Origin: Elusimicrobiota bacterium
GTDB lineage: Bacteria > Elusimicrobiota > Elusimicrobia > Elusimicrobiales > UBA9959
Length of the DNA stretch: 10,784 nucleotides
Direction: 5' to 3'
NCBI GenBank assembly: GCA_037137395.1
Contig: JBAXKK010000080.1
Span: 1-10,784 of the forward strand
How positions within the stretch are numbered: the stretch's first letter is position 1; every line of letters begins with the position of its first letter. Shown piece after piece: positions 1 through 3,000 of the stretch. Position numbers: made by a program.

Positions 1-3000
1 TGGCTTTGAGGTCGCCTCATTGATCGCATCCGCGTGTTTGAGGGTTTTTGCATACATCCCGGAGCACCCGGACAGAAAAAGAAATGCAGCCAATGCGATG
101 GAAAAGTCAAAAAATTGTCGTGTTTTCATAAACATCCGCTCTGATTTCAAGCCGGAGGTATAAGTAATACCCCCGGTTTCAATATTGTCGCTGGTTACTA
201 TAGGTGGCGCTATAGCGCCGGAGTGCTAAAAATAAAGCCCTGCGCCCCTTTCCGCGTGAAGATAGGGGGCAGCGCGTCTCCTGGTTCCAAGAAAGCGGCC
301 ATGGGGAATGTTAGCGATGGTTGCAGGGGCCGTAAAATCGGGAGCCATCTGGTTACTCTGATTTTGTTTTGATGCCTATTGCTGCCAGCCCCTTGCGGAT
401 CTCATTTTTTGCGTATTCCCCGCCACCGTCGTTGTCCCAGCCGCTGAATTCGTCCAGTATTTTCCCGTCTTTAATGAAGTAAAAAGTTGGAGATATCCTC
501 AAGAGGGTGAAGCCGGGAAAGTCGCTTGATTTTCGCGCCATATATACCGCATCGAAATTGGAGTGTTTTTTTACGGTCTCAATGCCCGCGGGATCGAACG
601 CCCTGGTCAGCATAAATCCTTTAGCGCGAAAAACAGGTCCGAGTTCCGAATCTGCAAATATCCCGTCCGCGGCCATTTCAGCGAACTCACATCCGGGACG
701 CATAACCATTACGATCGCCTGACCGCTCTTCGGAAGCAGCTGCAGGTTAACTTTTTTCCCTTGTTTTGAAACCTTATATACCCACCACCCTTCAGGCTTG
801 GCGGTATCCGCCGGAACGATTTCAGGGACTTCCGGCAAAGACTTGTCGGGGAGCTCCAGCCGTAGCGCAGCAGCTTTGCTGAATAGCCCTGACATAATGA
901 AAGCATTATACATGCGCTCGGTATCATCCCCCGTGGTTTTTCCCCTTCGGCCCTTTTCTTTGAATGCGCTCTCCATCCTTAACGTGTAATTCTCTTCGTC
1001 AGGCAAGTAAAGAGAGATTTTCATTAACGCGTGAAACAGTGAGTCTACAGCTTTATCCGAATATTTTTTCATGCGCGTCGGAGACAGATCTTCCGCTGTA
1101 ATTGAGGATGACAGGTTATTGATGGCATCCATATCATGCTTTCTCCCGGCAGCGGAAACTTCTTCGGATACCTTCGCAAGTCTAATTTCCGGACCGGTAC
1201 ACCCTGCCACCAATAGCGTAGCCGATAGAGCCATAATAATGTTTATGTTTTTCATAATCCCGTCTCCAGTGGGGGCAGAACTGCTCTGCCCCCACCAGCA
1301 ATATCATTACTTGCAAGTTGTCGTATTACACTTGTATCCATCCTCAAAGTCGCAGCCGCGGAGAACAACGTTACCTTTCGCCCCAGTAGAGGCGTTGCAG
1401 GCATAATCGGTAAGAATATGCCGTGATTCTGGCCCAGGTGCTGGCGGCATAATTATACTGAGTATCTCTTCGAATCTTTCAGGAGTAATTGCCTTTTCCA
1501 GTGCATCGGTTTTAATAGAAACCATGGCGCCATTTAAAAGCTTCATATTATCCAACAAATCCTCCTTGGTCTTTTCTGGAACACCCTGCAGGAGCTCCCC
1601 TATTTGTGCCATAGGGTGTTCAACAATGGGGATGTGTGAATCCATGTTTTCTTCCCGGAATTCAAAGGCCAGCAGAATTTCCTCTATTCTTGCGAGGGAT
1701 AGTCTATTCCGCTCTAGAACCGTATAATCCCGGGCGGCCACTCTCCCATTTGTTAATTTTATGCTGGACATAAACTCCACCCGGTCTTTGGCGGAAAGAT
1801 CTTTTAGCAGATCTTTTACGACAATAATGCGATCTTTGTACGGATTTGCAGTATCCTCCGCGGCGGATTGGCTCACAGCCTGAGGTGTGGGAACTTTTTG
1901 CGTTTCATTATTCTCATTCACCTTAGCTATTACATACGGGTTCATGCTTTTATTTTCAGAACCGTCAAATGATACGGCCACATTCTCCGCATTGGTGAAA
2001 CCAATCCCTAAACATATTATACCGATTACTGCCATCATTGTTTTCTTCATTTTAGCCTCCCCTTTTTTCTGTTGTTTCTGCAAACAAAAAAGGGAAAGCA
2101 AATTTTAATTTGCTTTCCCTGGATACACCGGATTACGGTCCGGTCGTGGATACTCCGGGGCCAACCCCCCGAATTACAAGGTATTTCTTACTACGGTAAT
2201 AGCATACTCGGTAAGACTATGCGCGACAAGGGCACTAAGGGTCGTGCTTGTATAGGTCTAAGGGCCTATCCCCGTTCCCTAATAAAGTGCTAATAAAGTG
2301 ACACACAACTTAATTGTTGCCAATTAAGTTGTGTGTCACTTTAATTAAGAATTTTTTATAGGTAAGCGGCGTTTTCCTTGTCGGATTCTATAAGCGAGGA
2401 ATCGATGTCTATAGTTGCGGTCTTAAGCCGCTTAAGCGCGAAGGCCGCCGGCACAAGTGCGGCCCGGGCTAATGCGGCTATTGTCCTGTGGGAAAAGCGT
2501 TTCAGAAAAACCCCGGCAGTGTTTGCGGCTGGAATGGAAACGATACTCAACGCGGAGACAACCGCGTCATTTTTAATCAGACGGTTGTCGTCCAGGCGTT
2601 CGCCGCGGGCGATAAGGGTGAGCGCGAGGCTCATTATATGGTCGGCGGTTGAATAATCGCGTCGGCGTTTCCATAATCCATCTATGGCATTAAGCTGTTT
2701 AATGAGGCCGCAGGAATGAGCTAAATCGGAGATAATCGGAAGGCCGGCGAACGATGTAAGAGAAGAATCCGATTTTTCCACTTTAAAACTGCCTGGTTTT
2801 TGTCGTATCATAATACTTGAGTGCCTCCTGTATCTATTAGACGTGGACTATAGGAGGCATTCTGTTTTTTTATGAGCGGTTTGTGGGCGGTTTTTGGGGG
2901 TAACCCGGTGCAGAAATACTGTAAAGCGCGGCTTCACCCATCGGGTGAAATCTTTTCCACTATGGGGGAACGCTCTTAGCGGAGGATTAGCGTATTGAAC

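Follow-up and report, generated by a model that had tools for sequence, protein, structure and literature searches.

The 2'-dG-II riboswitch class has been characterized by a crystal structure and binding data, yet the literature we searched offers no agreed host, switching direction, or biological role for these RNAs. A member of this class resides in a contig of 10,784 nucleotides from an Elusimicrobiota genome (contig C80; hereafter the window, meaning the whole stretch of DNA analyzed). This locus raises the question of which bacteria carry 2'-dG-II riboswitches, in which direction they switch, and why a putative sensor of 2'-deoxyguanosine (dG) precedes genes for exported proteins.

2'-dG-II aptamers and their hosts

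The aptamer in the window aligns with 71 of the 71 positions of Rfam model RF03165 (E 9.9e-20) and is accompanied by the features listed in Table 1. A whole-genome search with this model returned exactly five matches, on contigs C105 (85 bits), C159 (84 bits), C80 (79.6 bits), C5 (76.6 bits), and C3 (56.2 bits, E 1.7e-13). These are the same five that an initial annotation of this genome had reported, and their downstream genes are as it described them. The C80, C105, C159, and C5 copies reach the Rfam cut-off of 60 bits, and the C3 copy falls below it. Because copies from Balneolaceae that are near the previously tested RNA env1 also score 56-64 bits, this cut-off under-calls real members of the class. 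No match over the cut-off was found in any of 14 control genomes.

Table 1. Features of the riboswitch locus in the window, with positions and strand.
Feature	Position	Strand	Basis or description
16-bp palindrome TRGGNCYWWRGNCCYA, candidate NarL/FixJ-family activator site	2253..2268	.	Pattern and co-occurrence; binding predicted
Extended -10-like element, candidate promoter	2195..2204	-	Read from sequence; consensus scan made no call
2'-dG-II riboswitch aptamer	2114..2184	-	RF03165, 79.6 bits; core G21-C79, U22, C51, C78
Intrinsic terminator, ON-type platform; 5' arm is the P1 3' strand	2086..2120	-	Folding and sequence
Shine-Dalgarno-like site of first gene	2056..2062	-	Sequence
g01956, 247 aa	1307..2050	-	Signal peptide, two tandem helical repeats of ~45 aa, variable C-terminal four-cysteine mini-domain
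g01955, 300-aa lipoprotein	353..1255	-	Helical domain and single-cysteine thioredoxin fold; invariant Cys189 and Pro256

The residues that define 2'-dG-II aptamers are U22, C51, C78, and the G21-C79 pair (PMC6847200). Reading of the five copies revealed the U22, C51, and C78 first shell and the G21-C79 junction pair in every one, and the presence of C51 and G21-C79 rules out a guanine or adenine riboswitch (U51, A21-U75). The J3/1 strand, in which a two-nucleotide insertion is a class trait, is that of env1 in the C5 copy and has the length of the tested RNA env23, with a gap-free alignment, in the C80, C105, and C159 copies. In the C3 copy it is one base shorter than in env1, and L3 is 8 nt. 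All five aptamers are located in 5' leaders, with an expression platform in C80, C105, C159, and C5 and an ambiguous one in C3. We conclude that the assignment of this set to the 2'-dG-II class is supported.

A species-wide pattern scan that included one genome per species yielded at least 120 loci, 24 of which were rescored with Rfam. Two loci without a 2'-dG-II match at E 1e-5 (L077 and L096) and one with none at the cut-off (L083) were excluded from the counts, and six duplicate loci were merged. Among the matches listed, at least 106 are from Elusimicrobiota (at least 74 genomes), at least 7 are from Balneolaceae, at least 4 are from entries titled "bacterium," and 3 lack a confirmed aptamer, but this ratio is biased because the pattern was derived mainly from Elusimicrobia copies and finds 6 of the 12 model-detected Balneolaceae loci. 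A divergent third host could also be missed by this pattern. When the covariance model was used to search the class Elusimicrobia, 22 of 121 genomes had matches over the cut-off, distributed among four families and with up to 12 matches per genome, whereas none of the 26 genomes in family f2 did. In the family that includes Balneola, matches were found in 13 of 101 genomes (2 over the cut-off), nearly all as a single copy. These results support part of the class Elusimicrobia as the main, although not the sole, host of 2'-dG-II riboswitches. The assertion that the class belongs to Elusimicrobiota therefore holds with respect to the main host and fails as a statement about the phylum as a whole.

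The class had also been described in the initial annotation as known only from unassigned metagenome reads. This is how it appears in McCown 2017, with 12 members in one count (PMC5473149), but a 2022 review assigns the class to Bacteroidetes, and the genes that it associates with these RNAs are those for ComEC, phospholipase D (PLD), endonuclease I, and receiver-domain proteins (PMC8872408). The aptamer in print is the same and all four gene types recur here, whereas there are up to 12 matches per genome in Elusimicrobia. We found no link between 2'-dG-II and Elusimicrobia in the literature searched. The class was reportedly defined by Weinberg et al. in 2017, and that paper may already give the host, ON switching, and more gene links.

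Published affinities can be connected with these hosts through four tested RNAs (env1, env6, env23, and env30) taken from the supplement of PMC6847200, whose cores we compared by eye with the genomic copies. The env23 core differs from those of the C105 and C159 copies at 2 of 59 bases and from that of the window copy at 3 of 59. One base, outside the engineered P1, distinguishes env6 from an Elusimicrobiales locus (L038) that leads a gene of the same family as the C3 gene, and env30 resembles a common Elusimicrobia subtype. RNA env1 shows a single difference in 61 bases from a locus (L229) of the family to which a Balneola genome belongs. By this comparison, env23, env6, and env30 are Elusimicrobia-type RNAs and the crystallized env1 is a Balneolaceae-type RNA, which ties the published affinities to genomes and genes. 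The KD of env23 for dG is 290 nM with 180-fold selectivity over guanosine, the corresponding values for env6 are 88 nM and 35-fold, and env1, the least selective RNA tested, favors dG over guanosine by 2.6-fold (PMC6847200). Likeness to these tested RNAs is the strongest support for dG as the predicted ligand of the copies in this genome. Furthermore, because the crystallized env1 was chosen for having the closest resemblance in the class to the xpt guanine switch (PMC6847200), and because Balneolaceae are carriers too, the view of the class as an Elusimicrobiota invention is unsupported.

Another explanation is that the short contigs come from a different organism or were binned wrongly, or that the leaders are recently copied passengers without a regulatory role. 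The assembly is 98.9% complete with a contamination estimate of 7.7%, and the tetranucleotide composition of C80 and C159 is atypical (among contigs of comparable size, 1 of 71 scores lower than C80 and 3 of 44 score lower than C159). The C80 and C159 leaders are 94% identical across 142 bases, and an IS fragment lies upstream within the window. However, C3 bears a ribosomal protein operon, C3 and C5 have typical composition, a search of viral contigs for the aptamer gave no match, terminator arms co-vary with P1 (see below), and the switch recurs in the at least 74 named Elusimicrobiota genomes counted above. This explanation is highly improbable for the present genome and is largely refuted at the level of the lineage. 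A hairpin repeat found on C80 is also present on more than 10 other contigs of the genome, and a homologue of the first C80 gene carries an Elusimicrobiales name. Proteins of the genome have matches of up to 90% at named Elusimicrobia loci and none at the five Balneolaceae loci tested. These matches and the named homologue are the basis for assigning the genome to Elusimicrobia.

Expression platforms and switching direction

In the unliganded folds of the C80, C105, and C159 leaders, the terminator is kept and P1 is lost, and forcing P1 to form costs 7.4, 6.2, and 8.6 kcal/mol, respectively. Mutual exclusion of P1 and terminator, which had been claimed for C3 as well, is clear in these three copies and ambiguous in C3, where the main hairpin persists with P1 formed. 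The window hairpin also does not deserve its earlier description as GC-rich, since 5 of its 13 stem pairs are G-C. The proposed ON logic itself is supported in four of the five copies (C80, C105, C159, and C5) and across relatives. From the gaps of 6-9 kcal/mol in four copies of the genome, we infer that the choice between the two states is made during transcription. The pbuE adenine riboswitch of Bacillus subtilis is a kinetic ON switch in which ligand-stabilized P1 excludes a terminator, and it controls one efflux pump. The exclusion of P1 and terminator seen here is like that of pbuE, whereas the ligand and core differ.

Platforms were counted in 129 unique non-Balneolaceae loci, a sample that leaves out weak matches from family f15 because they lack C51. 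A terminator that overlaps P1, with a U-tract and a 5' arm that shares two or more bases with the P1 3' strand, is present at 74 of these loci. Another 21 have anti-Shine-Dalgarno pairing, wherein an aptamer complement of 8-10 bases covers the ribosome site. The remainder show weak overlap (11 loci) or neither platform (23 loci), so that 34 loci, C3 included, are without a clear ON platform by our detectors, and the ON architecture holds in 95 of 129. For comparison, random positions gave 15 terminator calls in 957 with the same detector.

The terminator arms are matched to their own loci, in which 5.38 of 6 positions form Watson-Crick pairs versus 3.90 +/- 0.11 after arms were swapped among 72 loci, although this figure should not be read as a probability, since the loci share ancestry and folding was used to choose them. 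Where the shared strand has changed, both of its pairing partners have changed to match, and the terminator arms co-vary with P1. In the unliganded fold, P1, as scored by the G21-C79 pair, is formed at 1 of the 74 terminator loci and at 5 of the 21 anti-Shine-Dalgarno loci. Platform type tracks gene family, with the translational type at 19 of 23 ComEC-domain genes and a terminator at 14 of 14 loci for small peptides. A second promoter-like site, which could permit transcription to bypass the switch, lies behind the terminator at 12 of these 14 peptide loci and at 0 of 60 other terminator loci. Our detectors found neither platform at the Balneolaceae loci (0 of 6), some of which have aptamer bases that might pair with the ribosome site.

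Considered jointly, a dG-type ligand and ON logic are very likely for these riboswitches. The 2'-dG-III class is likewise predicted to be an ON switch (PMC9295807). This class and 2'-dG-I from Mesoplasma florum share a purine-clan fold and a nucleoside ligand with the RNAs examined here, but the genes under their control, for ribonucleotide reductase or a nucleoside-degrading enzyme, belong to nucleotide housekeeping, whereas the genes found here encode exported proteins. Compared with 2'-dG-II in print, the RNAs studied here use platforms of two types, precede a much wider range of target families, and have a putative operator upstream. The switching direction, host range, operator, and target set were not found in the literature searched.

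Target genes and the operon in the window

First genes were called automatically and some calls are wrong; the cluster counts are therefore limited to those checked by eye. The clusters comprise a stand-alone ComEC-type nuclease domain (23 loci), the family of the C3 gene (13 loci), an unknown family (11 loci), and receiver domains (4 loci). At fourteen loci a gene for a small peptide comes first and a radical-SAM, YcaO, or peptide-binding gene lies behind it, and other first genes encode subtilase, papain, phosphatase, and NucT-like PLD proteins. The earlier picture of an exported-protein regulon agrees with the signal-like N-termini of 87 of 109 first genes, compared to 345 of 1155 ORFs of the genome with the same crude detector; the other 22 first genes look cytoplasmic. 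Balneolaceae copies lead genes for secreted endonuclease I or exo/endonuclease-phosphatase proteins, and the targets scanned from this group are all secreted nucleases.

The C5 protein consists of the nuclease domain alone (TIGR00361, 106.5 bits versus a cut-off of 190). We rejected a full-length ComEC channel for this protein because it has no membrane Competence domain; it differs from ComEC in being stand-alone, with a signal-like N-terminus and no membrane channel. A separate Competence-domain gene is present on C48. The nuclease activity of the ComEC beta-lactamase-like domain is established (PMC12455585), and the C5-type domain has its best PDB match at E 1.7e-34, with HxHxDH and GHHGS motifs that are invariant in 16 aligned proteins. 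Among 30 loci from a class-wide search for this domain, an aptamer lies ~100 bases upstream in all 8 of the best-ranked (4 of which were in the query alignment), in 3 of the next 13, and in 0 of the last 9.

For the C3 gene family we found no Pfam, NCBIfam, or PDB sequence match, and five scanned members of the 11-locus family, the second-largest unknown family, had no Pfam match. The "zincin" designation of the C105 protein comes from two features of its sequence, an HExxH motif and a Glu located downstream, and a partial Pfam scan of this protein gave no match. For the peptide loci of relatives, an epipeptide (YydG/EpeE) system is at most a lead to a similar function, since the two radical-SAM proteins scanned score 69 and 46 bits against a YydG cut-off of 300.

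Neither a Pfam nor an NCBIfam family was found for g01956, the first gene in the window, and a fold search with its model (pLDDT 63.9) gave no match above Z 2.4, with Atlas hits under 0.9. The second gene, g01955, had been proposed to encode a thioredoxin-fold lipoprotein partner, and this is supported: its profile matches thioredoxins (E 2.6e-4), its thioredoxin-fold model has a pLDDT of 96.3, and the top Foldseek rows are thioredoxin-fold proteins, none of which reaches E 0.001. The family has 976 representatives, and a Cys and a cis-Pro are the sole invariant columns among 80 sequences. Thus, the protein has a thioredoxin fold, an active-site Cys, and a cis-Pro loop, but the family consensus is CxxA rather than the CxxC of a dithiol enzyme.

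Precursor and lipoprotein genes are paired at eight of the nine loci read that are not G000 riboswitch loci (seven distinct places). A cysteine-tailed secreted gene precedes the g01955 homologues at most loci read, with L159 and the C1 paralogue as exceptions, and no aptamer was seen in the flanks of these loci that were examined. A model of the g01956-g01955 complex scored 0.87 (best control, 0.01), a mark reached by 116 of 157 solved pairs and 2 of 215 mismatched pairs, although this score may be shaped by solved thioredoxin-substrate complexes. At least 85% of contacts agree among runs, the pLDDT of the partner is 79, and Cys233 of g01956 is placed at Cys189 and the cis-Pro loop of g01955. 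On our reading, g01955 is a candidate dedicated thiol or folding catalyst for the cysteine tail of g01956, although it may instead be an immunity-type binder.

An upstream palindrome and the source of deoxyguanosine

The palindrome RGGNCYWWRGNCCY, a candidate second input absent from the initial annotation and added here, is found upstream of 74 of 124 aptamers; in two sets of control regions it occurs in 0 of 89 and in 1 of 85. It is mostly located 50-110 bases upstream of the aptamer and is often paired, with copies 24 bases apart. The C80, C5, and C3 loci carry it, 50 of the 124 loci (including C105) are without it by the pattern used, and C159 has too little upstream DNA for the test; none of six Balneolaceae loci has it. 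Among 121 class genomes, at least three strict copies were counted in 64 of the 69 that have an orthologue of a NarL-type regulator encoded on C3 and in 3 of the 52 that do not. All 22 genomes whose riboswitch match passes the cut-off have the orthologue, which is also kept in family f2, where the switch is missing. A deoxynucleoside kinase is encoded by 20 of the 22 genomes that carry the switch, by 20 of the 99 that lack it, and by 1 of 26 in family f2, but the palindrome, regulator, and kinase share one clade split, and these co-occurrences are therefore not independent evidence. The genome encodes a second LuxR-type regulator.

The DosR/DevR box of Mycobacterium tuberculosis, TTSGGGACTWWAGTCCCSAA (PMC2275270), has a similar palindromic pattern and length, a LuxR/NarL-family regulator, and tandem sites. 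In comparison, the element described here has a more degenerate core, occurs in another phylum, precedes secreted-enzyme genes, and is in series with a riboswitch, and its binding by a regulator is predicted from the pattern and from co-occurrence. Co-control of these genes by a NarL-type activator is likely. We scored 42 palindrome sites in the genome and checked the genes in 20 regions, which include proteases (three clostripain-like, one trypsin-like, one papain-like, and a carboxypeptidase), an amidase, an RNase, a second ComEC-domain gene, a deiminase, and several genes without a family. The riboswitch genes look like a subset of a secretome regulon under the palindrome.

As an explanation of the whole, we favor, with moderate confidence, a two-input ON switch in which an activator and dG are both needed to express exported proteins. 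A NarL/FixJ-type response regulator would bind the palindrome upstream of the promoter, and transcription would start. With no ligand, the leader would form the terminator or, at ComEC-domain genes, aptamer bases would pair with the ribosome site. The binding of 2'-deoxyguanosine would stabilize P1 during transcription, such that the terminator loses its base or the ribosome site is freed and expression proceeds. The architecture for this step is observed, and ligand binding is predicted from near-identical tested RNAs. As annotated, the products are secreted nucleases, proteases, phosphatases, and receiver proteins, along with disulfide-rich precursors with a dedicated thioredoxin-fold lipoprotein and small peptides with radical-SAM/YcaO enzymes, and these presumably have the corresponding activities. 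Lysed-cell DNA may supply the dG, in which case switch-led nucleases would create positive feedback, and investment in digestion and antagonism would be limited to places with dead biomass or prey.

A multi-copy dG switch for exported enzymes and peptides in one branch of Elusimicrobia suggests a response to dead or lysed cells. If so, a nucleoside riboswitch in series with a response regulator would control exported enzymes and peptide clusters, and would provide the first regulatory handle on the feeding of free-living Elusimicrobia. The switch is also a simple marker for uncharacterized secreted proteins and peptide clusters in this lineage. The earlier interpretation as a response to necromass and extracellular DNA would fit, but the regulon also contains peptide-modification and signaling genes.

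These additional genes bear on an alternative in which dG is a danger signal rather than food. It would report kin lysis or envelope attack, and the regulator would be an envelope-stress system that arms defense peptides, peptide signaling, and repair enzymes. The 14 peptide loci, the four loci that lead receiver domains, and the retention of the regulator in switch-less family f2 agree with this alternative, as does the best NCBIfam match of the two scanned radical-SAM proteins, which is the YydG epimerase family, albeit far below its cut-off. However, we judge it unlikely given that palindrome-led genes with a family match in the genome are mostly degradative enzymes, the secreted nuclease domain is the largest riboswitch target group, and the Balneolaceae targets scanned are uniformly secreted nucleases.

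Because nucleases lead the target list in both phyla, outside DNA is the simplest source of dG for the two-input switch that we favor, although we consider the case for an external, dead-cell origin of the signal to be evenly balanced. The genome encodes a nucleoside-type ABC binding protein and ABC ATPase, a deoxynucleoside kinase, and two phosphorylase-family genes. Four of the 22 riboswitch genomes have this binding protein, and a search of the present genome for two other families of nucleoside transporters gave no match, which weighs against an outside source of dG. In a study of sludge, Elusimicrobiota were among the groups with the fewest extracellular proteins (PMC11495043), and we found no direct support for predation by Elusimicrobia in the literature searched. 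A more speculative proposal, which we hold to be doubtful, is that free-living Elusimicrobia are unrecognized necrotrophs or predators for which cytoplasmic deoxyguanosine is the cue that a cell has been broken open. The NarL-type regulator would then license a lytic secretome, and the dG riboswitch would be the second key to a rapidly exchanged arsenal of cue-amplifying secreted nucleases, radical-SAM/YcaO-modified peptides, and a new family of disulfide-rich peptide precursors, with a separate single-cysteine thioredoxin lipoprotein for the maturation of each one. If this were true, the riboswitch class would sense ecological conditions and would control peptide natural-product clusters instead of metabolism.

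The signal might instead be internal, if nucleotide turnover within the cell during starvation, DNA damage, or phage infection releases dG or guanosine that activates a scavenging program. We found no importer common to the majority of riboswitch genomes, guanosine is bound almost as well as dG by some members of the class (2.6-fold for env1; PMC6847200), and one riboswitch locus leads GTP cyclohydrolase II. Nevertheless, we view an internal signal as quite improbable, since the near-identical env23 is 180-fold selective for dG (PMC6847200) and a search of the genome, which is 98.9% complete, for the dGTPase-associated domain gave no match. In addition, the first genes led by these riboswitches are almost never nucleotide-metabolism genes.

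Peptide loci and a cassette without a recognisable aptamer

In the peptide loci of relatives, the riboswitch is followed by a promoter-like site (TTG-N-YAWAAT), a gene for a peptide of about 65 amino acids, and then genes for a radical-SAM or YcaO protein and peptide-binding proteins. The promoter-like site was found in 12 of 14 peptide loci compared to none of the 60 remaining terminator loci. The N-terminal half of the peptide is hydrophobic and conserved, whereas the C-terminal half is variable. At locus L029, an ISL3-type transposase lies directly after a peptide-type leader, about 200-1400 bases downstream of the aptamer.

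In the genome that carries the window, this peptide and radical-SAM cassette occurs again (L214) and has no recognisable aptamer, although the palindrome is present there. We read this arrangement as a riboswitch that has been lost or replaced in this genome. Orthologues of the NarL-type regulator (L216) occur in 68 other genomes with identities of 61-94%, and the regulator gene is followed by TadE-like genes, an S41 peptidase gene, and a ribosomal protein operon.

Features discussed in this section (coordinates without a contig name refer to the window)
Feature	Location	Strand	Remarks
Purine-riboswitch variant aptamer	L016, L019, L027, L028: local 1501-1571; L026: local 249-319		Family f15, same phylum, other class
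Peptide loci	L007, L020, L021, L036, L054, L075, L095, L062, L073, L087, plus others
Peptide and radical-SAM cassette (L214)	G000:C44, about 7000-8230		Palindrome present
NarL-type regulator locus (L216)	G000:C3:4000-22500
G+C-rich hairpin, 10 bp, no U-tract	1269-1295		Between g01956 and g01955
Near-perfect hairpin repeat, ~60 bp	2283-2347		Copies on >10 contigs
IS1380-type transposase fragment	2356-2811	-	Adjoins hairpin repeat
Two genes with MepA-like endopeptidase motifs	3049-6487	+	Around FG-GAP-like repeat protein gene
First MepA-like gene	3049-4452	+	Motif identified by eye
Second MepA-like gene	5870-6487	+	Weak NCBIfam match
Peptide-modification cluster	6497-10153	+	Cys/Pro-rich peptide, TPR protein, radical SAM/SPASM maturase, YydH-like membrane protease
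Maturase ORFs	7602-7913, 7985-9007	+	Apparent frame break near 7890

Variant and ordinary purine riboswitches

All five f15 variant aptamers carry U51, as in the guanine type, and a three-base J3/1, and their terminator overlaps P1 in an ON-type arrangement. For L016 and L028, the top-scoring model is 2'-dG-II (49 and 44.5 bits, respectively). The f15 aptamers are possibly an unclassified variant or an intermediate. At three of the five loci, the aptamer precedes a gene for a HAMP-like membrane protein as well as a prepilin-type gene.

The purine riboswitches at loci L015, L017, and L018 are of the ordinary kind. Their platform is apparently of the OFF type, and they precede a small redoxin-like gene and the genes for the anaerobic ribonucleotide reductase activase and reductase. 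Among the 2'-dG-II loci, the only purine-metabolism target seen is the GTP cyclohydrolase II gene behind the L067 aptamer.

Surroundings of the riboswitch operon in the window

The hairpin between the precursor gene g01956 and the lipoprotein gene g01955 may set their expression ratio. Divergent to this operon are the MepA-like and FG-GAP-like genes, and the two MepA-like products are candidate cell-wall hydrolases. In the peptide-modification cluster, the Cys/Pro-rich peptide has 97 amino acids, and the maturase is apparently split into two ORFs.
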